From the NCBI GenBank assembly GCA_026398535.1, contig JAPLSQ010000058.1, positions 34,339 through 98,338 on the forward strand: DNA of 64,000 bases, in the 5' to 3' direction. Below the pieces are notes generated by a model, which saw only the letters and a program-made list of their open reading frames with translations, was not told where the DNA came from and did no database searches. Shown here one piece after another: positions 8,234 to 47,852 of the stretch (the first letter of the stretch is position 1; the number at the start of each line of letters is the position of its first letter). A program made the position numbers and the translations under genes. The DNA is from Candidatus Sumerlaeota bacterium. Its GTDB lineage: Bacteria > Sumerlaeota > Sumerlaeia > Sumerlaeales > Sumerlaeaceae.

Positions 8234-8266
8234 CATGGAGAACACGGACAAACACCCGGTCACCGG
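8234..8266 (+). repeat. decamer repeat block plus A-like 5' fragment
   Basis: CATGGAGAACACGGACAAACAC followed by CCGGTCACCGG; lies between convergent stops 8228-8230 (+) and 8260-8262 (-). Confidence 0.85.
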
Positions 8267-17184: not shown

Positions 17185-17245
17185 CATGGAGAACACGCCC
17201 CCCCCTGACAAACACGCCCCCCCCTGACAAACACGGAGAAACACG
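17185..17245 (+). repeat. composite repeat filling the whole glgC-lysA spacer
   Basis: CATGGAGAACACG-C8-TGACAAACACG-C8-TGACAAACACGGAGAAACACG, then lysA ATG 17246. Confidence 0.9.
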
Positions 17246-18601
17246 ATGGAACATAATAGAAGAGATTGGGATTGGCATACCTCCCCCTTGGATTTTAACG
17301 GCCTTGACAGCATTGCCGCGAAAGTTGGCACCCCATTCTGGCTATATGACGCAGGGACGCTGAAGCGGCGCATCGGCGCGGTCAAGCGCGTGGCCGCCGA
17401 GGGCGGCGTGATGGCGCGTTACGCGATGAAAGCCTGTTCCGCCACGCGCGTCGTGCGCGAGATGCTCGCCAACGGCATCTGGATCGACGCCGTGTCGGGC
17501 AACGAGGTCGTCCGTGCCATCCGCGCGGGCGCCGCGCCGGGACAATCGCCACCGGTTGTCGTCCTCACGGCTGATGTTTTTCGCGACAACGCCCTCGACG
17601 CGATCATGCAATACGGCATCCTGCCGAACATCGGTTCGCCCGGAATGCTGGACGAACTGGCGCGCGCTGGCTACAAGGGCAACATCGCAATACGCATCAA
17701 TCCCGGTTTCGGCCACGGTCATGTGAACGCCTGCGACACGGGCGGTCCGAGTTCCAAGCACGGCATCTGGTTCAGTCAGGCGGAAGAAATCGCGCGCCAG
17801 GCGGCGCTCCACGCGATGAAGGTCGTCATGTTGCACGCCCACATCGGCAGCGGCCCGCAAATGGAGGAGCTTCTGGCAAATCTGCGGCGCCTGGCAAACG
17901 AGTTTGCGCGAACCGCACCCATCTTTCCCGAACTCGAAGCCTTCAGTTTCGGCGGAGGCATTCCCCATTCCTACCATGAGGAAAACCCCGAAAAAGCCCT
18001 CAACGACGAAATCGCCCCGCTCGGTCCGCTGTTCCACGAGGTTGTGAAGCGTCTTCGCGAGACAACGCGGCGCGAGGTGCGCGTCGAAATCGAACCGGGA
18101 CGTTACTTCGTCGCTCCCTGCGCGAAACTTGTCGCCCGCGTGACCGACATAAAGAAAACCGAACCCCGGTCAGCGAGTACGCCATCAGGCGAGAAAGGCG
18201 GGGGGCAGACATTTATCATGGTGGATGCGGGGTTTGTCGATCTCCTGCGCCCGGCGATGTACGGCTCCTACCACAGGATTTCCACGTACGGCCCCAGCAA
18301 ATCCGGCCCCCCCCCTGGCGCGCGCCCCGTGGTTGTGGCCGGACCGCTGTGCGAATCCGGCGATGTGTTCACACGCGACGCTTCCGATTTTATCGCGCCC
18401 CGCGATCTGCCGCTTCCCGCCAAGGGCGATCTGCTCGTCATCCACGACGCCGGCGCCTATGGTTACGCCATGAGCTCAAATTACAACTCCGTCGGCCGCG
18501 CCCCGCAGGTTTGGATCGGCGAGGATGGCGCGGCCGCGCTCATCTCCCGCCGCGAAACCGTGGACGACATCCTGCGGCTGGAGACCGAAACAACGCTGTA
18601 A
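17246..18601 (+). CDS. lysA: diaminopimelate decarboxylase
   Basis: YAMKACS (PLP-Lys), GFGHGH, FGGGIP, EPGRY, MVDAGFVDLLRPAMYGSYH, CESGD; carries in-frame copy of repeat A. Confidence 0.93.
   Translation: MEHNRRDWDWHTSPLDFNGLDSIAAKVGTPFWLYDAGTLKRRIGAVKRVAAEGGVMARYAMKACSATRVVREMLANGIWIDAVSGNEVVRAIRAGAAPGQSPPVVVLTADVFRDNALDAIMQYGILPNIGSPGMLDELARAGYKGNIAIRINPGFGHGHVNACDTGGPSSKHGIWFSQAEEIARQAALHAMKVVMLHAHIGSGPQMEELLANLRRLANEFARTAPIFPELEAFSFGGGIPHSYHEENPEKALNDEIAPLGPLFHEVVKRLRETTRREVRVEIEPGRYFVAPCAKLVARVTDIKKTEPRSASTPSGEKGGGQTFIMVDAGFVDLLRPAMYGSYHRISTYGPSKSGPPPGARPVVVAGPLCESGDVFTRDASDFIAPRDLPLPAKGDLLVIHDAGAYGYAMSSNYNSVGRAPQVWIGEDGAAALISRRETVDDILRLETETTL
18166..18189 (+). repeat. 24-mer repeat A inside lysA (frame 2: RSASTPSG)
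   Basis: exact 24-mer; position verified by codon counting from 17246 (R308 codon at 18167). Confidence 0.95.
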
Positions 18602-18612
18602 TTCCCTGCCAG

Positions 18613-18677
18613 CCCCCCCCCGAAAGAACCATACGGAGAACACGGAGAACACGGAGAACACGGAGAACACGGAGAAC
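18613..18677 (+). repeat. C9 run plus 5 x 9-mer ACGGAGAAC
   Basis: C9 at 18613-18621; ACGGAGAAC x5 at 18633-18677, directly abutting recX ATG 18678. Confidence 0.95.
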
Positions 18678-19313
18678 ATGCTGATTCTGTCGCTCACATA
18701 CAGAAAGCGAAAGCCGGCATCTGTCGTTGAAGTTGTTTTCAATGACGGACAGGTATTGGATTTGGATCCGGAACTGGCCGTCAAATTTCAACTTGCGGCG
18801 GGCGAAGACATTTCGCAGCAGGCAATGGACGAGTTGCGGAACGCGCAGGAGAGTCTCACGGCGCGCCGTCGGCTCGTGCGTTATATGTCATTGCGCCGCA
18901 AGAGCGGGCGCGAGGCTTCGGATTATCTTCTGCGGGCGGGCTTCAGTCCGGACGCTGTCGAGTCGGCCATGGCGGGCGCGCGCGAACTGGGGCTGATCGA
19001 CGATGCGCGTTTTGCTGCGGCGTACACGCGCACGCAGCAGCGCGCAACGCACAAGGGTCCGCGCGCCATCCGGCACGAATTGATGATGCGCGGCGTCAAC
19101 CCCGGCATCGCGGCGCAAACAGTCGCGCCATCGGCGACGCCAGAGACGCAGAAGGAGCACGCGCGCGCAGCCGCGGTAAAAAAGGCCGCCAGCCTGCAAA
19201 AAGAGCCGCCCAACAAGGCGCGCGCAAAGCTTTATGCCCATCTTCTCAGAAAAGGCTACGACCCGGACGTGGCATCACAGGTGACGCATGAACTATTCAA
19301 TGAAAAAGAATGA
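18678..19313 (+). CDS. recX: recombination regulator RecX
   Basis: RRRLVRYMSLRRKSGREASDYLLRAGF, helical repeat architecture, about 210 aa; ORF upstream of 18678 is repeat read-through. Confidence 0.7.
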   Translation: MLILSLTYRKRKPASVVEVVFNDGQVLDLDPELAVKFQLAAGEDISQQAMDELRNAQESLTARRRLVRYMSLRRKSGREASDYLLRAGFSPDAVESAMAGARELGLIDDARFAAAYTRTQQRATHKGPRAIRHELMMRGVNPGIAAQTVAPSATPETQKEHARAAAVKKAASLQKEPPNKARAKLYAHLLRKGYDPDVASQVTHELFNEKE

Positions 19314-19345: not shown

Positions 19346-19436
19346 CCGGAGAACACGGACAAACATGGACAAATACGGACAAACACGGAAACCGGTCAGC
19401 GAGTACGCCATCAGGCGGAGAATGGCAGGCATCATG
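19346..19436 (+). repeat. decamers + repeat A + ATGGCAGGCATCATG module
   Basis: CCGGAGAACACGGACAAACATGGACAAATACGGACAAACACGGAAA, A at 19392-19415, then CGGAGA-ATGGCAGGCATCATG (19422-19436; same 15-mer at 35520-35534). Confidence 0.92.
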
Positions 19437-20303
19437 ATAATTGCGCAAATCGCGGCTGGTTGCGCGGCTTCGTCCCCCCCCGCATCCGCGACGCCGCCAT
19501 TGATCGTCGCCCACAGAGGTTCCTCCCACAGCGCGCCCGAGAACACTCTGCCGGCTTACGCGCTCGCGTGGAAACAGAACGCCGACGCGGGGGAGTGCGA
19601 CATTTATATGAGCCGCGACGGGCGGATCATGGTGATTCACGATGGCGACACTTCCAGGACGGCGGGCGCCGCGCTGAAGGTCAAGGATACCGAGTCGGCG
19701 CGGCTTCGCCAGCTTGATGCCGGGAGATGGAAGGACGCGAAGTACGCCGGAACGCAAATCCCGTTCCTTGAGGAGATCATCGCCGGTCTTCCCGTCGGGA
19801 AGAGGCTCTTCGTGGAGATCAAATGCGGCCGCGAGGCGTTGCCGGCGTTGCGCGATGTGATTGCCGCGAGCGGCAAGACGCCGCACCCCCCCCTGATCAC
19901 GCTGATCGGGTTTGAACTCGGCACGATTGTGGAAGCCAAGGCCATGATGCCCGCCCTCCCCGCATACTGGCTGCGCGGCACGGTGATGCGCTCCGGGAAC
20001 GGCAAAAAAATTCCCCAGCCGCACGACCCCGCATGGGCGGTCACAGCGAAATCAAGGGGACTGGACGGACTGGATGTGCATTACGAGGGACTGACGCCGG
20101 AATTCGCTGCGGCGGTGAAGGCCGCCGGATTGGGGCTTCACGCCTGGACGGTTGATGACGCCGCCGAGGCGCAACGGCTCATGCGGCTTGGCGTGGACAG
20201 CATCACGACAAACCGCCCGGATTTCATCCGCGAGGCGCTGGGCGGGCGGGACGCCCGCGCTCCCAGGACAACCACGGACAACCAACCGGGGCATAACCAA
20301 TAA
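19422..20303 (+). CDS. glycerophosphodiester phosphodiesterase (secreted)
   Basis: signal-like MAGIMIIAQIAAGCAAS; IVAHRGSSHSAPENT, ECDIYMSRDGRIMVIHD, HAWTVDD; last about 20 codons are repeat-derived. Confidence 0.85.
   Translation: MAGIMIIAQIAAGCAASSPPASATPPLIVAHRGSSHSAPENTLPAYALAWKQNADAGECDIYMSRDGRIMVIHDGDTSRTAGAALKVKDTESARLRQLDAGRWKDAKYAGTQIPFLEEIIAGLPVGKRLFVEIKCGREALPALRDVIAASGKTPHPPLITLIGFELGTIVEAKAMMPALPAYWLRGTVMRSGNGKKIPQPHDPAWAVTAKSRGLDGLDVHYEGLTPEFAAAVKAAGLGLHAWTVDDAAEAQRLMRLGVDSITTNRPDFIREALGGRDARAPRTTTDNQPGHNQ
20231..20285 (+). repeat. 40-nt hairpin module plus degenerate decamers
   Basis: CGAGGCGCTGGGCGGGCGGGACGCCCGCGCTCCCAGGACAA (38/40 identical to 24031-24070; GCGGGCG-GGA-CGCCCGC stem-loop), then CCACGGACAACCAAC. 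Confidence 0.9.
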
Positions 20304-20387: not shown

Positions 20388-21815
20388 ATGCAGGACTCGA
20401 TCCAGTTTGAACCCGATTTCACACCGGGCGCCAAGATAAAGGTTGTGGGTGTCGGCGGCGGCGGCACGAACGCCGTTGACAGCATGGTGGAATCGGGGCT
20501 GAAGGGTGTGGATTTTTTTGTGATCAACACGGACGCGCTGGCGCTGTCGCGCAGCAAGGCTCAGACGAAGATTCAGATCGGCCAGAACATCACGCACGGG
20601 CGCGGTTCGGGCGCCGATCCGGCCATTGGCGAACAGGCCGCGGTCGAAGCCAAGGATGTCATCCAGGAGAATCTTAAAGGCGCGGACATGATTTTCATCA
20701 CGGCGGGTCTGGGCGGAGGCACAGGCACGGGCGCGGCGCCCGTCATCGCCGAAATTGCCAGGGACATGGGCATTCTGACCGTGGCCGTCGTCACGCGCCC
20801 CTTCCGGTTCGAGGGCCCCCAACGCATGAACAAGGCCAACCAGGGGCTCGACCGTCTGCGCCAGTTTGTCGACACCTGCATCATCGTTTCCAATGACCGT
20901 CTCATCGAGGTCGTCGGCCCAAAGACCCCGCTCAAGGAAGCTTTCAGTGTGGCCAACAACGTGCTGACGATGGGTGTGCAGAGCATCAACGACCTGATCA
21001 GTGTTCCCGGTCTGATCAACGTGGATTTTGCCGACGTCCGCACGATCATGAACGAAACCGGCGGCGCCGTGATGGGCGTGGGCGTGGGCAAGGGCGAGAA
21101 CCGCGCCACCGAGGCCGTGAAAAAGGCATGCGCCAGCCCGTTGCTGGACAAAATTGTCATCGACGGAGCGCGCGGCGTGCTGATCTGCGTGACAGGGGGC
21201 GAGGACATGACCCTCAACGAGATCAACGAGGCGACGACCATGGTATACGAGGCCGCCTCGCCCGACGCGAATATCATTTTTGGCGCGGTGGTTGACGAAA
21301 AGCTCAAGGACGAAATCCGCGTCACAATCATCGCCACAGGCTTGGAGGACAAGCATCTGCGCACCGGCGCGCCCATCCCCGACGACTCGCGCATGGGTAT
21401 CGGCCCGGGGCCGAGCAAGGAAAGAATCGAGTCGATGTTCACGCCGGCCACGGAGCGCCGTTCATCGGCCGCCGCGAAAACGGCGGAGGCGGTTGCGGCA
21501 AAGAAGGAAAGCGCCGTTGCCGCCGCATCGGATGCCGCGCACAATGTCGCGGCCGCCGCGCCAAAATCCGACGAGCACGTCAATTCGTTCGATTTCAAAC
21601 GACCCGACAACCCGTTGCGCTCGAGTTCAGCGTTCGCCGCGGCCACGGAAACCGGTCAGCGAGTACGCCATCAGGCGGACGAACACGGACAAACACGGAC
21701 AAACACGGAGAACACGGCTGACAAACTCGAGGAGAAATCCGCCGCGGGCGAACTGCGCGAGGACGATCCCGACATCCCCGCATTCCTAAAACGGCGCAAG
21801 AACCTGTTCGAGTAG
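20388..21815 (+). CDS. ftsZ: cell division GTPase FtsZ
   Basis: IKVVGVGGGGTNAV, GGGTGTGAAPVIA, NDRL, VDFADV; C-terminal peptide DIPAFLKRR; AGGAG RBS upstream; linker carries repeat A plus decamers. Confidence 0.97.
   Translation: MQDSIQFEPDFTPGAKIKVVGVGGGGTNAVDSMVESGLKGVDFFVINTDALALSRSKAQTKIQIGQNITHGRGSGADPAIGEQAAVEAKDVIQENLKGADMIFITAGLGGGTGTGAAPVIAEIARDMGILTVAVVTRPFRFEGPQRMNKANQGLDRLRQFVDTCIIVSNDRLIEVVGPKTPLKEAFSVANNVLTMGVQSINDLISVPGLINVDFADVRTIMNETGGAVMGVGVGKGENRATEAVKKACASPLLDKIVIDGARGVLICVTGGEDMTLNEINEATTMVYEAASPDANIIFGAVVDEKLKDEIRVTIIATGLEDKHLRTGAPIPDDSRMGIGPGPSKERIESMFTPATERRSSAAAKTAEAVAAKKESAVAAASDAAHNVAAAAPKSDEHVNSFDFKRPDNPLRSSSAFAAATETGQRVRHQADEHGQTRTNTENTADKLEEKSAAGELREDDPDIPAFLKRRKNLFE
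21644..21716 (+). repeat. CACGGAAA + repeat A + 4 decamers inside ftsZ linker
   Basis: A at 21652-21675 (frame 3: GQRVRHQA, verified by codon count G423 at 21654), then CGGACGAACACGGACAAACACGGACAAACACGGAGAACACGG. Confidence 0.95.
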
Positions 21816-21830
21816 CGCGCGCCATCATCC

Positions 21831-21856
21831 GCGGACAACCGTGGACAACCAATAAA
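21831..21856 (+). repeat. degenerate decamers
   Basis: GCGGACAACCGTGGACAACCAATAAA, compare 20272-20303. Confidence 0.6.
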
Positions 21857-24030: not shown

Positions 24031-24131
24031 CGGGGCGTTGGGCGGGCGGGACGCCCGCGCTCCCAGGACAAACACGGACAAACACGGACAACCACGGACA
24101 ACCAAGGACACGGATGAAATACCCGCACCAA
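24031..24131 (+). repeat. hairpin module + decamers + 33-nt ATG module
   Basis: CGGGGCGTTGGGCGGGCGGGACGCCCGCGCTCCCAGGACAA, ACACGGACAA x2, CCACGGACAA, then CAACCAAGGACACGGATGAAATACCCGCACCAA (24099-24131), identical to 45042-45074. Confidence 0.93.
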
Positions 24132-25432: not shown

Positions 25433-25484
25433 GACACTATCTTCAATCCGTCCATTACCCCCATGACGCAATAAAAATTGTGAA

Positions 25485-25622
25485 GAACACGGACGACCAC
25501 GAACAACCACGGACAACCATAGACAACCACAGACAACCACAGACAACCACAGACAACCACAGACAACCACAGACAACCACGGGCAACCACGGGCAACCAC
25601 GGACGAAGAAAGAGGCGGCGGA
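25485..25622 (+). repeat. phased 10-mer array (about 13 units) in divergent intergenic region
   Basis: GGACGACCAC GAACAACCAC GGACAACCAT (AGACAACCAC)x6 (GGGCAACCAC)x2 GGACGAAGAA, then AGAGGCGGCGG tail similar to 28811-28824. Confidence 0.95.
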
Positions 25623-28685: not shown

Positions 28686-28740
28686 CTGCCAACAACTGAT
28701 ACCAAGTAATGCCAAACAACGATTCGGCCTGAACATCACC

Positions 28741-28824
28741 GAGAACACGGACAACCACGGACAACCAAGGACGAAGAACAATGATATTCACCACAGAGAA
28801 CACGGACGAAGAACGAGGCGGCGG
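28741..28824 (+). repeat. decamers + ATGATATTCACCACAGAGA module + GAGGCGGCGG tail
   Basis: GAGAACACGGACAACCACGGACAACCAAGGACGAAGAACA; ATGATATTCACCACAGAGA (28781-28799), identical to 43388-43406; ACACGGACGAAGAACGAGGCGGCGG. Confidence 0.9.
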
Positions 28825-28896
28825 CGTGGTCAAACACATCTTCTCCGGCAACGGCACGGGAATCGCGTTCCGGGTGATGCCGGCATTAGGTGAACA

Positions 28897-33288: not shown

Positions 33289-33337
33289 GACATGGAGAAC
33301 ACGGACAAGCACGGACAAACACGGACAAACACGATGG
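33289..33337 (+). repeat. decamer block between two - strand genes
   Basis: GACATGGAGAACACGGACAAGCACGGACAAACACGGACAAACACGATGG; + orientation although both neighbours are on the - strand. Confidence 0.93.
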
Positions 33338-34949: not shown

Positions 34950-37248
34950 GATGAATCCCAAACCCGCGCGCGCCGCGACAATAACGGCGCTTGTCATTTA
35001 TGCGGTTGCGGTGCTGTTCGTGCTTGCATGGGCGCAGACACCCATTCTCGCGCCGTCAAACATCAACCGCACACAAGCTGCGCTCGAACCCCTGCGCTCG
35101 GTCAGCGATTCGGTTTTTATGTTCAGTCAGGGGGGGCTCATGTCCAACAACAACATGCCCTGGCGCGCTCTCGGCATTTTTGCGCTGTGGTTGTGCGCGC
35201 TCAGTTCGCTGGGCATTGGTGTGTCGCGCGGCATTTTCCCGGCAGGGCTTCTGTGGGAGGAACGCCTGCTCTTCGGTTTCGGCGCCGGATACATCATCAC
35301 CGGGCTTGCCGTGCTGTTTGCCGGTCTGGCTGGTTATGCCACACCCGACTCCGCCGCGCTCATCATTCTGCTTGCGCTGCTTGCGGGGCTTTGGCTCTGC
35401 AGACGCCAGATCGCCGGCATCCTGCGGCGGCGTCCGCCACCCCACACGGACAACCACGGAGAACACGGAGAACACGGACAAGCACGGACAAACACAGACA
35501 AACACGGAGAACACGGAGCATGGCAGGCATCATGGCGCGCTCCGCCCCCCCCCCGGCCGGACAACTGGCGGGTTGCCACGCGGATACTCCTTTTTTTCCT
35601 GTGCGCATTTATGGCCGCCGGATTTCTTTACGCCATGACCCCGCCCATTCAGTCCGACGCGATGCGTTATCATCTTGCGGCGCCCCAGGAGTGGCTCAAA
35701 ACGGGGCGCATCACTTTGTTGCCGCTTAACGCCTTCAGCAATTTCCCTTTTTTGCCCAACATGCATTATATGATTGCTCTGGCATGGGATGGGCCAGAAG
35801 CGTCGCAGATGATGCACTTCGCCATGCTGGCGCTTGTTACCGCGGGACTGTGCGGCTTCGTGCGCCGTTTCGTCGAGCCGCTTTATGGTTCGCCGCCTCC
35901 GCGCTCCGCCCCTTTCATCCGGCTTGTTGTCGCAACCATGTATGCCGGGGTTCCCGCGGTGTTCATTGTGGCGTCATGGCCGTTTGTGGACCAGATGTTC
36001 GTGTTTTTCGTCTTTGCGTCGCTTTACTCCATGCTTCTGGCATTGCGGAGCGGGTCACTGGCGGCTTATGTGTTCACCGGTGTGATGATGGGCGGGGCGC
36101 TTGGCTCGAAATACACGGCGCTTATTTTTTTCGGTGTTCTCATGGCGCTTGCCCTGATTGAGCTTTTCGTTGTCCGCCCCCCCCCCGACGCCTGGCGCGC
36201 TGGCGGCGCGCCGCCGCTAATGGCTCGCGCGCGCCGCTTCGCCGTGTTCGTTTTTGTTGCCGTCCTTGTCGGGTCTCCATGGTTCATAAAGAATGTCGTT
36301 TTGACCGGCAATCCCGTTTATCCTTTTGCCAACCAGCTTTTCGGCGGCGGCGACTGGTCAGGGGCCAATGCCAGGCTCTATGAAAGCAAGATGCGCGAAA
36401 AAGGTGAGACGCCCGCGCTGACGGCGTTTTTCAGATCGCCGGTCAAGGCAACCTTTGAGTGGACGCGTTATGAAGGGCAATATCCAGGCGGGGCGCTGGC
36501 GGGCGCGCTCATTGCCGCCGCCGCCGCCGTTGTCATGCTCATTCTGCGGTACCCCCCCCGTGAAAAACGCGCCGGGGCGCTCTATTACACTGCCGCCGCC
36601 GCCGCGCTCTACTATGCCTCATGGTTTGTGAGTTATCAGAGCAACCGCATGCTGGCGCCGTTTTTTGTGATGGCGCTGCCGCTGGCCGCCGTGTTTTTTC
36701 ATGAGTGCCGCATCCTGTCGCGCGGCGCTCTGGCTCTGGCGCTGGCCGTGGCATTGCTGTGCGCCGCCCACGGCATGTTATGGGCGCTCCAGTGGGAATA
36801 CCTGCGCGCCGTGCCGCCCTCCATGTCCTACTTCAACGGTTCGATGTCGCGCGACGAGTATCTTGTGCGCGGACTGAACTTCCGCCAAGCCTATCTTTAT
36901 CTCAACGAGCGTGTCAAACCGGATGAAAGGGTGCTGCTGATTGGCGAGCATCGCATCTACGGGGCGCAGTTCAACGCGATCTGGAGCGACTGGTTCGACA
37001 CGCCCGCCGTGCTCCACATCATGCGCGCCAACAGCATCTCCAGCCCGGCGGCGCTTGAGGGCGCCCTCAGGCTCGCGGGCGTGCGATGGATCCTCGTCAA
37101 TGAAACGGAGATCGCGCCTCAGAACGAATTGTACTGGAGACCGCGATTCACGGCCGAAGAATGGAAACTGCTGCAGACATTCCTGGAAATCCAGTCGCGC
37201 AACCGCATCAACATCCCTCCGGGCGTGTCGGTGATCAGGCTCCCCTGA
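34933..37248 (+). CDS. polytopic GT-C-like (family 39/83-like) glycosyltransferase; possibly two genes fused through a repeat
   Basis: 771-aa ORF, more than 12 hydrophobic helices; residues 171-207 are repeat-encoded; segment after the repeat (TM helix then IQSDAMRYHL loop) looks like a canonical GT-C N-terminus. Confidence 0.45.
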   Translation: MAEDHEMNPKPARAATITALVIYAVAVLFVLAWAQTPILAPSNINRTQAALEPLRSVSDSVFMFSQGGLMSNNNMPWRALGIFALWLCALSSLGIGVSRGIFPAGLLWEERLLFGFGAGYIITGLAVLFAGLAGYATPDSAALIILLALLAGLWLCRRQIAGILRRRPPPHTDNHGEHGEHGQARTNTDKHGEHGAWQASWRAPPPPRPDNWRVATRILLFFLCAFMAAGFLYAMTPPIQSDAMRYHLAAPQEWLKTGRITLLPLNAFSNFPFLPNMHYMIALAWDGPEASQMMHFAMLALVTAGLCGFVRRFVEPLYGSPPPRSAPFIRLVVATMYAGVPAVFIVASWPFVDQMFVFFVFASLYSMLLALRSGSLAAYVFTGVMMGGALGSKYTALIFFGVLMALALIELFVVRPPPDAWRAGGAPPLMARARRFAVFVFVAVLVGSPWFIKNVVLTGNPVYPFANQLFGGGDWSGANARLYESKMREKGETPALTAFFRSPVKATFEWTRYEGQYPGGALAGALIAAAAAVVMLILRYPPREKRAGALYYTAAAAALYYASWFVSYQSNRMLAPFFVMALPLAAVFFHECRILSRGALALALAVALLCAAHGMLWALQWEYLRAVPPSMSYFNGSMSRDEYLVRGLNFRQAYLYLNERVKPDERVLLIGEHRIYGAQFNAIWSDWFDTPAVLHIMRANSISSPAALEGALRLAGVRWILVNETEIAPQNELYWRPRFTAEEWKLLQTFLEIQSRNRINIPPGVSVIRLP
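35443..35554 (+). repeat. decamers + ATGGCAGGCATCATG + C10 run inside GT-C-like ORF
   Basis: CACACGGACAACCACGGAGAACACGGAGAACACGGACAAGCACGGACAAACACAGACAAACACGGAGAACACGGAGC; ATGGCAGGCATCATG 35520-35534; C10 35545-35554 (codon-verified). Confidence 0.93.
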
Positions 37249-37281
37249 ACACGGAGAACACGGAGAACACGGACAAACACG
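37248..37281 (+). repeat. decamers forming the entire intercistronic spacer
   Basis: TGA(37246-37248)-ACACGGAGAACACGGAGAACACGGACAAACACG-ATG(37282). Confidence 0.95.
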
Positions 37282-38820
37282 ATGGAACCATCAACAGCGC
37301 AGGAAACCATTTCGGCCTCGGCAACGGTCTTGCGTTTAACGGCCATTGTTCTGCTTGTGGCGCTCAACGGTTTCTTTGTGGCAGCCGAGTTTGCCATCGT
37401 TCGCGTGCGTGCGACGAGAGTCAAAGCGCTTGCCCGGCGCGGATCGCACATCGCAATAATCGCCGAGCACATGCTTGGGCACCTCAACGCCTACCTGAGC
37501 GCCACGCAACTCGGCATAACGATCGCATCGATCCTGCTCGGCTGGGTGGGTGAATCAACCCTGCGCGTGAGCATCATCGGTCCTGCTTTCAAAGCGCTCA
37601 ACATCACCAACCCAACCTTGCTGCACGTTGTGTCGTTCCTTTTCGGCACGGGGCTTATCGTTTTCCTGCATGTTGTCCTTGGCGAACAGGCGCCCAAGGC
37701 GCTGGCCATCCAATTTCCTGAAATCACGACAATGTGGATCGCCTATCCCCTGAAGTGGTTTTATTACCTCCTGTATCCGATCATCACCGTGCTCAACAAT
37801 GCCTCGCTGCTGATGCTGCGGCTTGTTGGCATTCAACCGGCAACAGAGCATGACATGGGCCATACGGAGGAGGAACTGCGCATGCTCTTCTCGGCCTCCA
37901 CCCGCTCAGGCGTCCTGACCACGGAAAAGCGCGTCCTGCTGGAAAACGTGTTCGATCTTTCCCAGCGCATCGTCCGCCAGATCATGGTGCCGCGCACCCA
38001 GGTGGCCGCCTTCAACCTCCAGAAAACTCTCGCCGACAATATGCGCATCGCGGCGCTGACCGCCCACAGCCGCTACCCGCTCATCGACGGCGATCTCGAC
38101 CATGCCGTGGGACTCATCCACATGAAGGACCTTTTCTGGCAGCTCAAGGAGATGGAAGCCCCGCACCCCCCCCTGAGCGCCGAAGGCGGCGAAGACACTG
38201 GCGGCGCCGCGCCCGACGACCTCAACCCCATGATCTCTGGCGGCGACGTGGCGCTCAACCAGCCTGCGACCGGCGCCGAATTCCTGCGAAAGATCGCCCG
38301 CGAAGTCCCCTACGTGCCCGAAACGATGCGCATCGACAACCTTCTGCGCGAACTCCAGCAGAAGCACGTGCACCTGGCCATGGTCGTGGATGAATACGGA
38401 GGAACATCCGGGCTTGTCACCTTTGAAAATGTCATCGAGGAAATCGTGGGGGAGGTGCAGGACGAGTTCGACCAGGAGACACCGCTTATCCGCCGGATCA
38501 ACGACACGGAATTCGCCATCGACGGCTTCGCGCCGCTCACCGAAGTCAACGACGCTCTGGGATGCGACCTGCGCGCTGAAGATGCCGACACCATCGGCGG
38601 CTACATCCTCGCGGAACTTGGCCGCATGCCCGTGACCGGCGACCGGCTGAGCGCCGAGGGCATCGAACTCACCGTCAGCGAAATGCAACGCCACGGCATC
38701 CAGCGCATCCACGCGCGGCTGCTCGGCCAGGCCGCGCCCGGCGACGAACACGGAGAACACGGAGAACACGGAGAACACGGACAAACACGGACAAACACGG
38801 ACAAACACAGAGAACCATGA
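37282..38820 (+). CDS. CNNM/CorC-HlyC-family transporter (DUF21-CBS pair-CorC_HlyC)
   Basis: LNGFFVAAEFAIVRVR (DUF21), CBS pair, GGTSGLVTFENVIEEIVGEVQDEFD; last about 25 codons (DEHGEHGEHGEHGQTRTNTDKHREP) are repeat-encoded. Confidence 0.88.
   Translation: MEPSTAQETISASATVLRLTAIVLLVALNGFFVAAEFAIVRVRATRVKALARRGSHIAIIAEHMLGHLNAYLSATQLGITIASILLGWVGESTLRVSIIGPAFKALNITNPTLLHVVSFLFGTGLIVFLHVVLGEQAPKALAIQFPEITTMWIAYPLKWFYYLLYPIITVLNNASLLMLRLVGIQPATEHDMGHTEEELRMLFSASTRSGVLTTEKRVLLENVFDLSQRIVRQIMVPRTQVAAFNLQKTLADNMRIAALTAHSRYPLIDGDLDHAVGLIHMKDLFWQLKEMEAPHPPLSAEGGEDTGGAAPDDLNPMISGGDVALNQPATGAEFLRKIAREVPYVPETMRIDNLLRELQQKHVHLAMVVDEYGGTSGLVTFENVIEEIVGEVQDEFDQETPLIRRINDTEFAIDGFAPLTEVNDALGCDLRAEDADTIGGYILAELGRMPVTGDRLSAEGIELTVSEMQRHGIQRIHARLLGQAAPGDEHGEHGEHGEHGQTRTNTDKHREP
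38746..38816 (+). repeat. decamer block forming 3' end of CNNM gene and 5' junction of next gene
   Basis: GAACACGGAGAACACGGAGAACACGGAGAACACGGACAAACACGGACAAACACGGACAAACACAGAGAACC, then ATGA (38817-38820). Confidence 0.95.
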
Positions 38821-40376: not shown

Positions 40377-40416
40377 GACAACGAACACGGACAAACACGG
40401 ACAAACACGGAGAACC
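40377..40416 (+). repeat. decamer block abutting pckG start
   Basis: GACAACGAACACGGACAAACACGGACAAACACGGAGAACC-ATGA; C12 run at 40290-40301 and C7 at 40238-40244 further upstream. Confidence 0.93.
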
Positions 40417-42294
40417 ATGAGCATGACAATCTGCGGCGACACCCTGACCAGCAACAGGATCGTGAAAAACTGGATCGACGAGATGGCGGCCATGTGCCAG
40501 CCGGACAGAATCGAGTGGATCGAAGGATGCGACGATCAGCGCGACATGTTGCGCGATGAGGCCGCGCGAACGGGCGAGATCATTCCGCTTGATCCCGTCA
40601 AGTACCCAAATTGCTACTACCACCGCACCCATCCCCTCGATGTGGCGCGCACAGAGGACAAAACATTCATCTGCTGCCGCAACGAGAAAAACGCCGGCGC
40701 CACCAACAACTGGAAAGATCCCGAAGAGGCCTATCTTGAGGCTGCAAGCTTTTTACACGGCTCCATGCGCGGCCGCACGATGTATGTCATCCCCTTTTCC
40801 ATGGGCCCCATCGGCTCGCCCTTCAGCAAAATCGGGATTGAACTCACCGACAGCATCTACGTGGCGCTTAACATGATGATCATGACTCGCGTTGGCCGCG
40901 AGGTGCTCGACGCGCTTGGCTCAAGCGCCGATTTCACCCGGTGCCTGCACAGCAAGGCGGGCCTCGACCCCGACAAGCGCCGCATCCTCCATTTCCCCGA
41001 AGACAACACCATCTGGTCCGTGAACTCGGGTTATGGCGGCAACGTGCTGCTCGGCAAGAAGTGCCTCGCGCTGCGCCTGGCAAGCTGGATGGCATGGCAG
41101 GAGGGGTGGCTCGCCGAGCACATGCTCATTCTCGGCATCGAGGAGCCAACCGGCTATGTGGATTACATTGCCGCCGCCTTCCCCAGCGCCTGCGGCAAAA
41201 CAAACCTGGCCATGCTCGTCCCCCCGGAAGGGCTGAAAAGCAAAGGCTACCGCATCTGGACCGTTGGCGACGACATCGCATGGATCCGCCCCGACACCGA
41301 CGGGCGCTTGTGGGCCATCAATCCCGAGGCGGGATTCTTCGGCGTATGCCCCGGCACCAATTCGCGCACCAATCCCAACGCCATGGCAACCCTGCAAAAA
41401 AACACCATCTTCACCAATGTCGTGCTTGGCAATGACGGCACGATCTGGTGGGAGGAAGGCGACGGCGATCCGCCCGCCGGCGCCCTCGACTGGCTGGGCA
41501 ATCCATGGCATACCGGCAAAAAAGACGCCAAAGGCGGCGTGATTGCCGGGGCGCACGCCAACAGCCGTTTCACCGCGCCGTTGCGCCAATGCCCCTCGGC
41601 TTCGCACCGCGTGGAGCACCACCACGGCGTGCCCATTTCGGCGATCATCTTCGGCGGCCGCCGCGAGCGCCTGGCCCCGCTGGTGTACGAGGCGCTGTCA
41701 TGGAACCACGGCGTGTTCATCGGCGCCAGCATGGCAAGCGAACGAACCGCCGCGCAGTACGGCACGCAGGGCGAGGTGCGCCGCGACCCCTTCGCCATGC
41801 TCCCATTCTGCGGCTATAACATCGCGGAATATTTCAAGCACTGGATAAAAATGGGGCGCACCGTCAAACATCCCCCGAAGATATTCCATGTGAACTGGTT
41901 CCGCAAAGACGCCGACGGCAAATTTCTGTGGCCCGGCTACGGCGAGAACCTGCGCGTCCTCGAATGGGTGCTCCAACGCACACGCGGCGAAGGCGACGCC
42001 GTGCTCTCGCCCATCGGCTATCTTCCCACACCCGACGCTTTCGACATGACCGGCCTCATACTTTCGAAGGCCGCCATGGCAAAACTGCTCGAGGTCACTG
42101 GGGAAGACTGGAAGCAGGAAGCCAACAGTGTTGGCGAGTTTTTCGACACGCTCGGTCCTTGCATGCCTTGGGAAGTGCGCAACGAGCTGGAAGCCCTGCG
42201 GCGAAGGTTGGAGCCAGGGGAGAACACGGACAACCACGAACAAGCACGGACAAGCACGGACAAAGAACGAATAACACCCACAATCCTGCCGTGA
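40417..42294 (+). CDS. pckG: phosphoenolpyruvate carboxykinase (GTP)
   Basis: FPSACGKTNLAM (P-loop), WAINPEAGFFGV, NWFRKDADGKFLWPGYGENLRVLEW; last about 25 codons repeat-encoded. Confidence 0.95.
   Translation: MSMTICGDTLTSNRIVKNWIDEMAAMCQPDRIEWIEGCDDQRDMLRDEAARTGEIIPLDPVKYPNCYYHRTHPLDVARTEDKTFICCRNEKNAGATNNWKDPEEAYLEAASFLHGSMRGRTMYVIPFSMGPIGSPFSKIGIELTDSIYVALNMMIMTRVGREVLDALGSSADFTRCLHSKAGLDPDKRRILHFPEDNTIWSVNSGYGGNVLLGKKCLALRLASWMAWQEGWLAEHMLILGIEEPTGYVDYIAAAFPSACGKTNLAMLVPPEGLKSKGYRIWTVGDDIAWIRPDTDGRLWAINPEAGFFGVCPGTNSRTNPNAMATLQKNTIFTNVVLGNDGTIWWEEGDGDPPAGALDWLGNPWHTGKKDAKGGVIAGAHANSRFTAPLRQCPSASHRVEHHHGVPISAIIFGGRRERLAPLVYEALSWNHGVFIGASMASERTAAQYGTQGEVRRDPFAMLPFCGYNIAEYFKHWIKMGRTVKHPPKIFHVNWFRKDADGKFLWPGYGENLRVLEWVLQRTRGEGDAVLSPIGYLPTPDAFDMTGLILSKAAMAKLLEVTGEDWKQEANSVGEFFDTLGPCMPWEVRNELEALRRRLEPGENTDNHEQARTSTDKERITPTILP
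42219..42270 (+). repeat. decamer block at 3' end of pckG
   Basis: GGAGAACACGGACAACCACGAACAAGCACGGACAAGCACGGACAAAGAACGA. Confidence 0.9.
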
Positions 42295-42479: not shown

Positions 42480-43391
42480 ATGGCGGTTGTCGTGGTCTGT
42501 CTCGGAACGGAGAACCACGGACCCCCCCCTGAACCACGGACAACCACGGACATATCGGGTGTCAGGTTTGCGGTGACCAACTCGTGGCTGGAATGCTGTC
42601 TGCGCGATATCGCCGGCCCCCCCCCGCCTGACGCGGATGTGGCGCGTCTTTGTCCGCCGGGCTCGTGTCCGGGCCATTTTGACATAAAACCGGGCGACGC
42701 GGCTGTGCTTATGAAATGCCAGGCGCTGTTCCGGTTCGATTTTCAGAAATCTCTCGACGCCAGGATACAAGGTCTGCGCACCGAGGGTCCCGCAATCATA
42801 TCCATTCCTGCCCCCGATGGGCTGTGCATCCCGGATCGCTACCTTGAATCTTGCGAGTCAATTCATGATGAACTGGCAAGACTGGAACCCGGCAGGCGTG
42901 CGGTTTTCGATGCCGCGCTGACAGCCACACGCGCGCGGCTCTCGAGCCTGTCCGCGCAGGCGCATGCCACGATTGCGGATGCGCGGTTACCGGGCGTGCG
43001 CGTTGTTGTGTCGGGGCGCCAAGCCGCTTTCTGCCGATGGCTCGGATTGGACACGGTGAGCGCCTATTCCGGCGGGGAGGCCGCGTCGCCCGCGCAACTG
43101 CGGGCGCTTGTAGAGAAAGGGCGTGATGCCAGGGTGCGTTTCGTCATCACGAACCTGCAGGAGGGCCGGCAGATGGGCGAGGCGCTTGCCTATCATCTCG
43201 GCGCCCAAGTGGTCGTGTTCAGCAACTTCCCGGACATGACGAGTTCCCAGAACAGCTTCGACGCCCTGGTAAACATGAACATTCAGGCGCTGATCTCGGC
43301 CGCGGGCGCCATCAGGCACGGAAACCGGTCAGCGAGTACGCCATCAGGCGGACAAACACGGACAAACACGGACAGGCACGGAGAACCATGA
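42480..43391 (+). CDS. TroA/ZnuA-like metal ABC transporter substrate-binding protein (atypical, Cys-rich)
   Basis: VRFAVTNSWLECCLRDIAG...LCPPGSCPGHFDIKPGD...FRFDFQ follows the ZnuA pattern (v.tt..l.d....G...l...g.dpH.ye.p.d); start uncertain (see findings); 3' end repeat-encoded. Confidence 0.55.
   Translation: MAVVVVCLGTENHGPPPEPRTTTDISGVRFAVTNSWLECCLRDIAGPPPPDADVARLCPPGSCPGHFDIKPGDAAVLMKCQALFRFDFQKSLDARIQGLRTEGPAIISIPAPDGLCIPDRYLESCESIHDELARLEPGRRAVFDAALTATRARLSSLSAQAHATIADARLPGVRVVVSGRQAAFCRWLGLDTVSAYSGGEAASPAQLRALVEKGRDARVRFVITNLQEGRQMGEALAYHLGAQVVVFSNFPDMTSSQNSFDALVNMNIQALISAAGAIRHGNRSASTPSGGQTRTNTDRHGEP
42506..42551 (+). repeat. decamers with embedded C8-TGA module
   Basis: AACGGAGAACCACGGA-C8-TGAACCACGGACAACCACGGACA. 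Confidence 0.88.
43308..43387 (+). repeat. A 3' fragment + CACGGAAA + repeat A + decamers
   Basis: GCCATCAGG CACGGAAA, A at 43325-43348 (frame 2: RSASTPSG), CGGACAAACACGGACAAACACGGACAGGCACGGAGAACC, then ATGA. Confidence 0.95.
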
Positions 43392-44200: not shown

Positions 44201-45060
44201 TGTTTCTCTGGCAGGCGGCGGCCGTCCTTGCCGGTTCTTCCACCGGGTTGCTCGGTGTCTATGTCGTCGGATTCCGGATGCCCTTCCTTGGCATCGCGAT
44301 GGCGCATGCCGCGATGGCCGGGGCCGTTCTGGCATGTCTGCTGGGGTTGCCTGTCGGCCCGCTGGCGCTCCTGTTCGCGTTGCTGGCCGCGGCGGTCATG
44401 GCATGGCTTGTCACGACGCATTTACGCGCCGATCTCAACACGGTGACAAGCATCCTGCTTTCGCTCACGATGGGGCTCGCGTTTCTTGGCATCGGTCTGA
44501 ACAAGGGCGATATGACGCCGCTGCTTGGCCTGATGTGGGGCAGCCTGCTTTTTGTGCGGCCGGCGGATGTCTGGATCATGCTGGCGATGATGGCTGCGCT
44601 CGTTCTGTTCGTGACGATGCTGGGCAAGGAGATGGACGCCATGCTGTTCAGCCGCAACATCGCACGCGCCTGCGGCGTCAACGACCGGCTCGTGCTTGTC
44701 CTGTTCCTGGTGCTTGCCGCGGTGATCATCACGGTGAACCTTCAGATTGTGGGCGGACTGCTCATGTACAGCCTGCTCACGAATCCTGCCGCGGCCGCGT
44801 TCGAAATTGGGCGCGGCATGCGCGCGGTGCGGTTTCTGGCCGCCTCGGCCGGCGCGCTCGGCGCTGTTGGCGGTTTCTGGCTGTCCTATCCCCTGAACCT
44901 GCCCACCGGCGCCTGCATCGTTATTGTGAGCGCATTGCTCTACGCCGTCGCATTGGCGGCCGGACAACCACGGAGAACACGGACAAGCACGGACAAGCAC
45001 GGACGAACGAAGACCGGTCAGCGAGTACGCCATCAGGCGGACAACCAAGGACACGGATGA
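44197..45060 (+). CDS. metal ABC transporter permease (ABC-3 / ZnuB-like)
   Basis: 8-9 TM helices, GLLGVYVV...FLGIAMAHAAMAGA typical of ABC-3; ATGA overlap with ATPase; last about 33 codons repeat-encoded. Confidence 0.85.
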   Translation: MMFLWQAAAVLAGSSTGLLGVYVVGFRMPFLGIAMAHAAMAGAVLACLLGLPVGPLALLFALLAAAVMAWLVTTHLRADLNTVTSILLSLTMGLAFLGIGLNKGDMTPLLGLMWGSLLFVRPADVWIMLAMMAALVLFVTMLGKEMDAMLFSRNIARACGVNDRLVLVLFLVLAAVIITVNLQIVGGLLMYSLLTNPAAAAFEIGRGMRAVRFLAASAGALGAVGGFWLSYPLNLPTGACIVIVSALLYAVALAAGQPRRTRTSTDKHGRTKTGQRVRHQADNQGHG

Positions 45061-45074
45061 AATACCCGCACCAA
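44961..45074 (+). repeat. decamers + repeat A + 33-nt ATG module
   Basis: CGGACAACCACGGAGAACACGGACAAGCACGGACAAGCACGGACGAACGAAGA, A at 45014-45037 (frame 3), CGGA, CAACCAAGGACACGGATGAAATACCCGCACCAA (45042-45074). Confidence 0.95.
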
Positions 45075-45932
45075 TCCGATGAGGCCCTCGGCGCGTTCTT
45101 TGACAAGTGCGCCTTGAATGGTGACATGGCGGATTTTACGCCTGAGGAGCAGAGGAAGCTGGCAAGTTTCCTGAGATTGTGGGACATCAGGGCTGGCCAG
45201 CATGTGTTGGAGCCGGGGTGTGGCAGCGGACGCCTGACAGCCCGGCTGGCTTCCATCGCGGGGTCTGAGGGCAGGGTCCATGCGTGCGACCTCTCACCCG
45301 AGATGATCCGCCGCGCGAAACAGCACGGGTTGCCGCCCCAAGCGGAATTTGTTGTCGAATCCATCAACACGCTGCACGAGCCAGACAAATCGTTCGACCA
45401 CGTCGTCTGCCTGAACGTCTTCCCGCATTTCAGCCACCATCCCCGGGCGCTGGCACAGATTGCCCGCGTGCTCAAGCCGGGCGGGCATCTGTGGATCAGC
45501 CATTTTGAAGGAAGCGACCGCATCAATCAGTTCCACCGCGATGCGGCGCCCGAGGTGGCCCAACACATGCTGCCGGGCGCGCAGGCAATGCGGCAACTTA
45601 TAGCCGGAGCCGGCCTCACATGGATAGGGCTGACCGACATACCGGAGATGTACTCGCTGCACGCCATCAAAAGCACGGAGAACACGGACAACCACGGACA
45701 AGCACGAAGAAGCACGGAGAACCCGGAGAGCACGGACAAGCACTACGGCGACATCATGCCGTTGCTCAGGCGCGTCACCACCCCGGCGCTCATGGTTCCA
45801 TTGGTCGGATCATACCATGTGCGCGGCGGTACGGGAAGATGCGAAGCGTCAGAGTCCCAGAAGCTCATGGGGCCGATCGGCCCGACGCTCCACAGAGCCC
45901 ATTTCGCCGGGGCTGACTGCTCATCGAAGTAG
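45057..45932 (+). CDS. class I SAM-dependent methyltransferase with repeat-mediated 3' read-through
   Basis: VLEPGCGSGRL (motif I), VLKPGGHLWI; fold ends near ...EMYSLHAIK (about 45669) but first in-frame stop is at 45930-45932. Confidence 0.7.
   Translation: MKYPHQSDEALGAFFDKCALNGDMADFTPEEQRKLASFLRLWDIRAGQHVLEPGCGSGRLTARLASIAGSEGRVHACDLSPEMIRRAKQHGLPPQAEFVVESINTLHEPDKSFDHVVCLNVFPHFSHHPRALAQIARVLKPGGHLWISHFEGSDRINQFHRDAAPEVAQHMLPGAQAMRQLIAGAGLTWIGLTDIPEMYSLHAIKSTENTDNHGQARRSTENPESTDKHYGDIMPLLRRVTTPALMVPLVGSYHVRGGTGRCEASESQKLMGPIGPTLHRAHFAGADCSSK
45672..45744 (+). repeat. decamer block after methyltransferase fold
   Basis: GCACGGAGAACACGGACAACCACGGACAAGCACGAAGAAGCACGGAGAACCCGGAGAGCACGGACAAGCAC; preceded by ACGCCATCA (A 3'-like fragment). 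Confidence 0.9.
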
Positions 45933-46390: not shown

Positions 46391-47268
46391 TATTCGTAAC
46401 ACTCCCAATCTCTGGCGGAGGCGGGGGCAAGGTTTATGTCCGAGTACTTCCTGACCCAAAGACGGTATGCGCTCGTGCAGGGAAACTCCGTGTCCTCCTG
46501 ATCGAAGATGCCTGTCACGCTGAAGGTTTCCGCGGGCGCTGAATGCGAGTTGAAATCACCCTGGCTGGACAACAGCAGCGTCATGGTGGCAACATTGTCA
46601 TCGGTGATCACGATCGAATTACCCGCGCCCCATTCGCCCGAGACGATGCGGGCATTTGAGAGTTTGCACCACCGGGCCTGGTATTTCTCGCCCCCTGTGG
46701 CGCGCGTCTGGTCGAAGAAGTTGCAGGCGGCGACACAGGGGATCGTTTCCGGGGCCGGCATTCCCGCGCCTGAGGCCAGCTTCGTGACGGTGAACTGCAT
46801 GCCTGGCGCCGCCGAGTGACGCTCGGTGATGTTCACCTTGCCGTTGTGGTCTTCGATGAAGCCATCGATCTGGATGCGGTCGCCCGGCAGGATGTCCGAT
46901 GGAAACCGGGGCCACGCGGGGTTATAGAAGATGCCCGCCCACGCTGCGATGCCGCCGTTGCCGGGCGATTCTCCCTGAACATACGCCTGCCACTGCATGG
47001 ACGTGTCGACAAGTTCAGCCGGGCTGTTCAGCGCGATACCCGAAATCACGACCCTGTTGGGCGAGTTTGCCGGATCGGCGCCTGGCGGCGCGCCGACTTT
47101 CGGGTGCGTTCCCGCGCCGTTTGAATCAACGGCTTCGAGATCCCAGATATGCTCAGCATGTGACAGCGGCGCGACGGCTGCAAGCGCGAGCGCCAGCAGG
47201 AGAACACGGACAAGCACGGACAACCCGGAGAACACGGACAAGCACAGACAACCACGGACAAAGAACAC
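46390..47268 (-). CDS. secreted hypothetical protein
   Basis: 292-aa ORF; ...VLVRVLLLALALAAVAPLSHA|EH signal-like; N-terminal about 22 codons are the antisense reading of a decamer block; start (GTG 47268 or internal GTG) uncertain. Confidence 0.6.
   Translation of the reverse strand: MFFVRGCLCLSVFSGLSVLVRVLLLALALAAVAPLSHAEHIWDLEAVDSNGAGTHPKVGAPPGADPANSPNRVVISGIALNSPAELVDTSMQWQAYVQGESPGNGGIAAWAGIFYNPAWPRFPSDILPGDRIQIDGFIEDHNGKVNITERHSAAPGMQFTVTKLASGAGMPAPETIPCVAACNFFDQTRATGGEKYQARWCKLSNARIVSGEWGAGNSIVITDDNVATMTLLLSSQGDFNSHSAPAETFSVTGIFDQEDTEFPCTSAYRLWVRKYSDINLAPASARDWECYE
47199..47266 (+). repeat. decamer block overlapping 5' end of a - strand CDS
   Basis: GGAGAACACGGACAAGCACGGACAACCCGGAGAACACGGACAAGCACAGACAACCACGGACAAAGAAC. 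Confidence 0.92.
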
Positions 47269-47365: not shown

Positions 47366-47406
47366 TAGAGGCATCGGCTGTCCTATACAGATTTAGGAGG
47401 CATCAG

Positions 47407-47829: not shown

Positions 47830-47830
47830 A

Positions 47831-47852
47831 ACGCGGACAACACGGACAACAA
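47831..47852 (+). repeat. short degenerate decamer block
   Basis: ACGCGGACAACACGGACAACAA directly after nikR stop. Confidence 0.6.

Follow-up and report, generated by a model that had tools for sequence, protein, structure and literature searches.

We analysed a window of 64,000 nucleotides (nt) from a Candidatus Sumerlaeota bacterium (assembly GCA_026398535.1, contig JAPLSQ010000058.1, positions 34,339 to 98,338; coordinates below count from the first letter of the window), in which junctions between genes, and some of the genes themselves, carry arrays of very short tandem repeats. The window is about 61% G+C, and roughly 85% of its genes lie on the plus strand. Two related units build the arrays: ACGGAGAAC of 9 nt and ACGGACAA[A/G/C]C of 10 nt, the latter also written ACGGACAANC. 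There are 22–23 arrays between 8.2 and 47.9 kb, every one of them on the plus strand. The 9-nt unit was found 61 times at a tolerance of one mismatch, versus 12.1 ± 3.6 times in shuffled sequence, and Tandem Repeats Finder (TRF) returned head-to-tail arrays with a period of 9 or 10 and a maximum of 11.7 copies.

Summed over 1167 nt, the arrays consist of A (42.5%), C (31%), G (25%) and T (1.2%), and their predicted RNA is unstructured (z >= 0, centroid energy about 0). This agrees with an earlier interpretation made from the letters of this DNA, here called the sequence-only reading, which had described the upstream units as A/C-rich, T-free and with little capacity for self-pairing. Since the plus strand of the arrays is without T and the minus strand without A, they are free of stop codons in all six frames; the same composition leaves no ATG, GTG or TTG on their plus strand. 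The sequence and length of the unit vary (GGAG, GGAC or AGAC; 9 or 10 nt), and every unit contains ACA (AACACGG) and ACGGA. One variant, ACAGACAACC, is amplified five times at 25521-25576, which shows that expansion in place has occurred.

Searches for known elements gave no assignment. Rfam 15 returned no match in the window above the gathering score (CsrB/RsmY-type families included), a tRNA scan of the window returned none, and promoter and terminator consensus scans of the window gave counts that did not exceed those of shuffles and were uninformative. A literature search by unit sequence found no paper with the unit, and general searches gave analogues only. Additionally, a protein search for further contigs of the genome, using the peptides encoded by the arrays and by a 24-mer described below, gave no match.

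Several arrays occupy the leaders of plus-strand genes. The glgC-lysA spacer (17185..17245, 61 nt) reads ATGGAGAACACG, two copies of C8 TGACAAACACG and GAGAAACACG, and adjoins the lysA ATG at 17246. The recX leader (18633..18677) is made of five perfect ACGGAGAAC units that adjoin the ATG at 18678, and the pckG leader (40381..40416) of three units that adjoin the ATG at 40417. The spacer between the GT-C and CNNM genes (37249..37281, 33 nt) runs from the GT-C stop codon to the CNNM ATG at 37282, and its last unit carries GGAC. Both this and the glgC-lysA spacer consist of repeat sequence only, just as the sequence-only reading had stated. In the leader of the GDPD phosphodiesterase gene (19346..19421), 4–5 units with an internal ATG at 19365 are followed by a copy of the 24-mer (19392-19415), CGGAGA and the ATG at 19422. 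A degenerate 2-unit array (21829..21850) lies about 20 nt upstream of lipB. Another 2-unit array (47830..47851) sits in the gap between the nikR-like and metallophosphoesterase genes; the latter has its own Shine-Dalgarno (SD) sequence, AAAGGAAAT, downstream of the array.

At least nine arrays are translated as parts of open reading frames (ORFs), in frame at dispensable segments such as the FtsZ linker, a loop of the GT-C protein and six C-terminal tails. The FtsZ composite (21645..21717) consists of ACGGAAA, the 24-mer and four units; the ORF stays in frame across it and still ends in the conserved terminal peptide DIPAFLKRRKNLFE followed by the stop codon. In the GT-C/PMT_2 gene (ORF 34933-37248), the feature at 35444..35534 begins with the array (35444-35519), which encodes a loop, HTDNHGEHGEHGQARTNTDKHGEHG, between hydrophobic segments; after it come 15 nt that copy the GDPD start. 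The ATG at 35520 had looked like another array leading into a start; it lies out of frame within the GT-C ORF and was rejected as such.

Array-encoded tails of the TENTDKHGQTRT type were found in GDPD, CNNM, PckG, ZnuA, the ABC-3 permease and a methyltransferase. The GDPD tail (20240..20284) joins a 32-nt flank, GGGCGGGCGGGACGCCCGCGCTCCCAGGACAA, to two translated units. That of CNNM (38743..38816) has seven units and ends in GAACC-ATGA, so that the CNNM stop overlaps the ATG of a gene for a 463-amino-acid (aa) protein at 38817. In PckG the tail (42219..42268) is translated beyond the PEPCK domain, which ends at residue 597 of 625. Arrays are found at all junctions of the ZnuA/ABC/ABC-3 metal-uptake operon (42480-45060). 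Here, units and C8-TGA lie within the N-terminal region of the ZnuA ORF (42503..42552; MAVVVVCLG-TENHGPPPEPRTTTD), and the ZnuA tail (43318..43387) repeats the order ACGGAAA, 24-mer and four units before ending in GGAGAACC-ATGA on the ABC ATPase ATG at 43388. The ABC-3 tail (44961..45056) comprises an array, the 24-mer (45014-45037) and GGACAACCAAGGACACGG, with an ATGA overlap at the methyltransferase ATG (45057). Thus, all three upstream ORFs that cross arrays into a following gene (CNNM/463-aa, ZnuA/ABC and ABC-3/methyltransferase) end at an ATGA overlap. Past its domain, the methyltransferase ORF itself (45057-45932) meets no stop codon and continues through an array between convergent genes (45671..45743) and then through 190 nt antisense to a type II secretion system (T2SS) pseudopilin gene (45743-46459).

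Since the arrays are always on the plus strand, at least six of them are followed by no adjacent sense-strand start: two lie in gaps between minus-strand genes, two at convergent junctions and two about 70 nt upstream of plus-strand genes. The 2-unit array ATGGAGAAC ACGGACAAAC (8235..8256) lies between the converging stops of Mem_trans (plus, 8230) and ROK (minus, 8260). The array at 24040..24131 lies between two minus-strand genes (DegT stop at 24164, GT2 start at about 24018), and so does that at 33289..33337 (stop of the polysaccharide deacetylase, PSdeac, at 33340; PRT start at 33208). The longest array (25482..25610), which holds the fivefold ACAGACAACC, separates the divergent DegT (minus) and 1001-aa (plus) genes and ends about 70 nt before the ATG at 25680; another (28737..28826) lies about 70 nt upstream of the GH57 gene. 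In a second divergent region (47199..47266), a 292-aa gene on the minus strand is called from GTG at 47268, and its hydrophobic N-terminus (VFFVRGCLCLSVFSGLSVLVRV...) is read from the antisense of the array.

Two further repeat types accompany the arrays. Runs of at least seven C (7–13 nt) occur 26 times on the plus strand, versus one poly-G run, at sites from 8908 to 63593 (for example 16502, 18307, 22502, 36177 and 40290). They lie within plus-strand genes, where they encode PPP, and within minus-strand genes (ROK, the deacetylase twice, pseudopilin); six have the form C8-TGA. The other type is a perfect 24-mer, CCGGTCAGCGAGTACGCCATCAGG, present in ten copies (598-669 as a tandem of three, 3272, 18166, 19392, 21652, 39270, 43325 and 45014), all ten on the plus strand and stop-free in all plus frames. 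It adjoins arrays in four cases and is in frame in LysA, FtsZ and the 463-aa protein. In LysA it is a 7-residue surface-loop insertion in comparison with six homologues; the best LysA homologues are about 65% identical and lack synteny. When metagenomes were scanned for the 24-mer, no more than three short contigs (JGI Ga0194044) came up, with two and four tandem copies; none of these contigs overlaps the window.

The single orientation of all three repeat types is absolute. A looser core motif gave 91 matches on the plus strand versus 14 on the minus, about 21 arrays were counted on the plus strand and none on the minus whatever the strand of the neighbouring genes, and a self-BLAST of the window found 148 direct short repeats versus one inverted. 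The same holds in a second strain (GCA_037138735.1, contig JBAXHV010000010.1 of 111.6 kb), which covers the whole window at 99.65% identity: over 79 kb, arrays are distributed 20:0, poly-C and poly-G runs 28 versus 1, and the 24-mer 10:0. Minus-strand genes, as identified by Pfam and by the gene calls of the second strain, are GT2, DegT, PRT, the deacetylase, ROK, pseudopilin and the 292-aa gene. Plus-strand arrays lie between minus-strand pairs (GT2/DegT, 24062-24114, and PRT/deacetylase, 33292-33333) as well as at two convergent (8235, 45671) and two divergent (25482, 47199) junctions. Arrays occupy 13 of 21 junctions between plus-strand genes versus 6 of 12 of the minus-minus, convergent and divergent type (p = 0.7).

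Such polarity might be expected if arrays, C-runs and 24-mer were signals, of the FtsK/SpoIIIE-orienting, Chi or uptake-like kind, that some DNA-handling machine recognises on a single strand. It is independent of gene strand in three unrelated repeat types, and the 24-mer is perfectly conserved, also in the three JGI contigs. A strong strand skew regardless of gene orientation is indeed shared with KOPS/SRS and Chi. However, known signals of this sort are single, fixed 5–12-mers dispersed across coding sequence that switch orientation at the origin and terminus, whereas here variable tandem units, free to differ in sequence and length, lie at tolerant sites. The density of arrays, poly-C runs and 24-mer falls almost to zero in 48–64 kb while the orientation never flips, and no switch of the origin/terminus type was seen within the window. 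We therefore regard a polar DNA signal as very improbable. GC skew was rejected as a guide to the direction of replication, because third-position GC skew tracks gene strand through codon usage and the direction cannot be read from it here.

A comparison of the arrays showed that the flanks of some recur exactly in others. Positions 24096-24131 equal 45039-45074 over 36 nt, a stretch that takes in the methyltransferase gene's first 18 nt. Likewise, 28781-28799 (in the array before GH57) equals the ABC ATPase start at 43388-43406 over 19 nt, and 35520-35534 equals the GDPD start at 19422-19436 over 15 nt, out of frame at the former site. The 32-nt 5′ flank of the GDPD tail at 20240 recurs at 24040, so that the array at 24040..24131 begins with a copy of one locus and ends with a copy of the methyltransferase start region. 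A 70-nt composite (21644-21713) is 95.7% identical to 43317-43386, and both ends of the array at 33289..33337 match the glgC-lysA spacer (GACATGGAGAACACG ... ACACGATGG). These exact copies imply that four cases of an array followed by ATG are not starts but hitch-hiked fragments, or else the donors of such fragments.

The arrays also differ in length between the two strains. Seven of the 11 indel events fall in repeats, which make up 2.6% of the sequence (66-fold enrichment, p = 2e-9), and substitutions are enriched in arrays too (7/139, p = 0.014). In the second strain, the GT-C array is shorter by one 9-nt unit, as is the array of the CNNM tail, which immediately precedes the 38817 start, and the array in the methyltransferase tail (45671..45743) is longer by 20 nt, that is, by two 10-mers. 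The tandem 24-mer at 598 has three copies in the window versus two in the second strain. C-runs vary as well: one in glgC is C11 versus C2 (a 9-nt step), one in a spacer C13 versus C11, and at 36176 the strains differ by 1 nt where the second strain's GT-C gene is called as two ORFs. Indels within ORFs are multiples of 3. LysA has 454 aa in the second strain versus 451, owing to a 9-nt C-rich in-frame insertion just upstream of the stop (window 18592).

Polymorphism of this kind recalls simple-sequence contingency loci, which in Neisseria, Haemophilus and Campylobacter affect surface, restriction-modification and virulence genes through frameshifts or changes in promoter spacing. Like them, the family has slippage-prone tracts near starts and in ORFs whose length differs between close strains. 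If the arrays were kept as phase or rheostat loci for heritable, reversible variation in expression or tail length, one would expect whole-unit polymorphism, which three arrays display, and changes such as the split of the GT-C gene by a single base in a C-run or the 20 nt that shift the frame of the methyltransferase tail. However, the genes concerned are housekeeping ones (lysA, ftsZ, pckG, glgC) rather than typical surface or restriction genes, many arrays lie where a change in length has no obvious effect, and the single-base difference in GT-C could be an assembly error. Changes in ORFs that keep the frame point to purifying selection, not switching, and we think contingency quite improbable.

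The possibility of an assembly or sequencing artefact was also considered, since short-read contigs break inside the arrays. Against it, junctions such as that of lysA are 100% identical in independent assemblies from at least five sequencing runs, the second genome record carries the arrays at 99.65% overall identity with differences of whole units, and in-frame insertions spare conserved protein ends. We reject this explanation, to which we give practically no credence.

On balance, we lean slightly towards reading the arrays as a hypervariable family of short tandem repeats that is dispersed, strand-polar and not primarily a translation leader. Replication slippage would make arrays grow and shrink, while template switching or gene conversion between co-oriented arrays would place copies at new loci. 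Copying between co-oriented arrays would keep the single orientation and drag along an adjoining ATG and first codons. Selection would remove only harmful insertions, leaving arrays to persist where they are harmless. As arrays contain neither stops nor starts, they can extend across a junction until the first essential base is reached; expansion would be limited downstream by the start codon and upstream by the stop or last needed codon. It is worth stressing that the unit resembles native ribosome-binding regions, such as AAGGAGAACAACG-ATG (DJ-1) and AGGAGACACACA-ATG (ftsZ), so an array that reaches a same-strand start can replace the leader and act as SD and unstructured spacer. The family may either have been seeded from native ribosome-binding sites or be able to replace them without loss, and the SD/spacer role would be a secondary use at about 6–8 junctions.

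The sequence-only reading had instead proposed a dedicated portable translation leader, in which the terminal GGAG serves as SD, the T-free units as a standby site or platform for a regulator (a GGA-binding CsrA-like protein or a GU-rich small RNA would be candidates) and the number of units tunes expression. All eight junction sequences that it quoted are present as written, and its claim that many array ends sit directly on start codons holds beyond chance: among T-free runs of at least 25 nt, 10 of the 20 with arrays abut an ATG versus 9 of the 97 control runs without arrays (Fisher p = 8e-5). For comparison, ATG triplets account for 9.4% of the T in the whole window.

Its cited starts fared less uniformly. 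Six of the eight match the independent gene calls of the second strain (lysA 17246, recX 18678, CNNM 37282, 463-aa 38817, pckG 40417 and ABC ATPase 43388), and the positions of Pfam domains also agree with them. In the case of the phosphodiesterase, however, the second strain's gene is called from the ATG at 19365 within the array, not from 19422, and no methyltransferase gene is called there at all. The statement that GGAG lies 3–9 nt upstream of the ATG applies to only four of the eight (lysA, recX, pckG, ABC). The spacers are 7 nt (lysA), 3 (recX), 16 (CNNM), 4 (pckG), 4 (ABC) and 1 (19422), and GGAG is absent at 38817 (AGAG) and in the methyltransferase leader (AAGGAC). Native SDs of ftsZ, DJ-1, PRT, ABC-3 and the 292-aa gene are spaced at 7–12 nt (7, 7, 8, 10, 12). 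Thus, the distance between GGAG and ATG is inconsistent and mostly shorter than in native SDs; a lack of consistent spacing genome-wide is among the outcomes that the sequence-only reading itself had named as refuting its hypothesis.

Some signals for ribosome binding nevertheless appear stronger at array-adjacent starts. GGAG lies within 22 nt of six of the eight array-adjacent starts, and the mean energy of the duplex with a generic anti-SD, which may not be that of the host as the 16S 3′ end lies outside the window, is −6.0 kcal/mol at array-adjacent starts versus −3.8 at other starts (p = 0.012). The terminal unit carries GGAG at 5 of 8 real starts versus 2 of 13 array ends elsewhere (p = 0.056). 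At the 6–8 same-strand junctions where the leader consists entirely of the array, only the array can supply an SD. The position of about ten arrays would fit a standby site or CA-rich enhancer, and ACACGGA resembles the CsrA-type ACA-R-GGA consensus; the GGA motifs, unlike typical CsrA sites, do not lie in predicted hairpin loops. CA-rich tails and ACA motifs act as translational enhancers in E. coli and Salmonella and are also targets of small RNAs (PMC5934652, PMC3879156). Given the stronger pairing, the enrichment of terminal GGAG and this known effect of unstructured CA/ACA-rich leaders, arrays probably serve as SD and spacer at 6–8 junctions and are under some selection for that role.

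This local use is the plausible part of the leader hypothesis; as an account of the nature of the element we find it unlikely. In its favour are the arrays that end on ATG, the six starts supported by independent calls, the pairing and GGAG statistics, the lack of structure, which by analogy with the enterobacterial leaders may promote translation, and the different number of units upstream of the 38817 start in the two strains. On the other hand, the at least six arrays with no sense-strand start downstream include the two at about 70 nt, which leave room for a promoter, and at least nine arrays are translated. Orientation is independent of gene strand, junctions are occupied equally with or without a downstream start, and GGAG lies 1–16 nt away or is absent where native SDs keep 7–12 nt. 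In addition, no hairpin-presented GGA is predicted and no csrA turned up in the window, though no search was aimed at it.

Several points weigh against our preference for a dispersed repeat family. The strong association of array ends with ATG, the stronger SD pairing and the enrichment of terminal GGAG together suggest selection for a translational role at junctions, so that "secondary use" may understate the function. The flank sequences exist in two copies each, which fits either direction of copying: starts may have been copied outward, or a mobile cassette may have donated them. Slippage alone accounts neither for the 9-nt step between C2 and C11 in glgC nor for the perfect 24-mers in lysA. 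Nor does the reading explain the absolute polarity, common to poly-C runs and 24-mer, behind which we would guess at an orientation-dependent process acting on a DNA strand, either linked to replication or an active templated insertion. Moreover, the evidence comes from the sequence of one region of about 79 kb in two near-identical strains.

The last of these processes deserves to be spelled out, although we rate it as unlikely. An active one-strand templated insertion or copy-choice mechanism might deposit 9/10-mers free of stops and starts, C8-C13 runs and the 24-mer, even in frame in the essential genes lysA, ftsZ and glgC. If so, ribosome-binding sites and start regions would form anew as by-products, as would disordered stretches of protein, and one result would be a regulon-like set of genes with a common CA-rich leader. 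Such a mechanism would give Borg-type repeats a parallel in bacteria, and perhaps a hint as to how they arise.

In bacteria, short tandem repeats scattered over a genome tend to be regarded as typing markers or junk. What is unusual here is the conjunction of absolute polarity, a composition without stops and starts, hypervariability, the supply of entire leaders, SD included, to housekeeping genes and the addition of disordered segments to proteins. The family thus offers a natural system in which to study the ways repeats give rise to ribosome-binding sites and protein tails or take their place, and it raises the question of which strand-specific DNA process makes such repeats. There is also a practical side: at nearly every gene junction an array interrupts short-read assembly, and gene callers are misled, as with the GDPD start, the methyltransferase stop and the split GT-C gene.

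Some other features of the window may be mentioned. A 445-nt direct duplication, 97% identical (53042-53486 and 58198-58642), lies in two large genes for PAS/HisKA/response-regulator hybrid sensor kinases. The pckG-znuA gap (42317-42380) holds two copies of CCGCGAAATTCAGG and, about 20 nt further on, its inverted complement CTGAATTTCGCG, giving a stem of 12 bp, which may be either a terminator for pckG or an operator of the metal-uptake operon. The nikR-like gene (47311-47829) is located about 2 kb downstream of that operon.

Among known repeats, the arrays are most readily compared with variable-number tandem repeats (VNTRs): their short units run head to tail and copy number differs between close strains (−9, −9 and +20 nt). 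The STRR heptamers of heterocystous cyanobacteria, attributed to Mazel et al. (1990), are reportedly 7-nt tandem units at many intergenic loci with no known function. They resemble the present family in having very short tandem units and one family at many loci of one genome, and differ in the 7-nt unit and the phylum. To our knowledge, neither absolute strand polarity nor a relation to start codons nor in-frame coding copies have been reported for STRR.

Functionally, the closest system is MIRU-VNTR (mycobacterial interspersed repetitive units), which is intercistronic within polycistronic mRNA, overlaps the flanking stop and start with its own frame and varies in copy number between strains (PMC3184786). 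The likeness lies in the many intercistronic loci, the ATGA overlaps and the polymorphism of units. However, MIRUs are 40–100 bp long, with inverted repeats and G+C-rich stems, features absent from the arrays, whose units are 9–10 nt, T-free, unstructured and also in frame in proteins; in contrast to MIRUs, the arrays ignore gene strand. Palindromes or terminal inverted repeats of the REP/BIME or MITE type were not found in the arrays either, and no structure is predicted for them. Rickettsia palindromic elements and others insert in frame or extend the 3′ end without inactivating the gene, measure 100–150 bp and occur in either orientation (PMC3184786). The in-frame repeats in FtsZ, LysA (the 24-mer), GT-C and the six C-terminal tails are alike in this respect, but their units are non-palindromic, of 9–24 nt and in one orientation.

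Borg extrachromosomal elements have tandem repeats in which the strand that carries the genes is enriched in A and depleted in T. These repeats are stop-free and fast-evolving, and they lie between genes, at ORF ends or in frame, where they make disordered segments (PMC9879509). The family shares with them the composition, the placement in spacers and in frame, the absence of stops and the fast evolution. In Borgs, however, each region has its own locally arisen, perfect unit, whereas here one family occupies more than 20 loci, flanks are copied, and the arrays reside on a bacterial chromosome with housekeeping genes. The CA-rich or ACA enhancers and standby tails are similar as unstructured A/C-rich sequence directly upstream of the SD or start, and the length of the tail matters in those studies (PMC5934652, PMC3879156). 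They are single enterobacterial leaders defined by experiment, while the arrays are known from sequence and lie for the most part outside leaders.

Arrays of ACGGA[G/C]AA-type 9–10-mers also occur in other metagenome-assembled genomes (MAGs) of the PVC group. The matches listed include 23 units at an Akkermansia contig end, 12 and 9 in Lentisphaeria, 7 in a Terrimicrobiaceae MAG and some in gut Lentisphaerae/Victivallaceae, and no listed MAG is related to the window by protein similarity. The scan used a degenerate 3-unit pattern that itself forces the core, and its matches do not imply that the core is conserved; most matches are single ones due to chance. In the Lentisphaerae MAG SIG94, the arrays are embedded in a dispersed element of larger size, whose flanks (CCGCGAACT ... 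TTTCGCGG) are conserved and partly inverted. We classify the present family as dispersed VNTR-like repeats, with its polarity, its composition free of stops and starts, and the ribosome-binding regions that it supplies as uncommon features.

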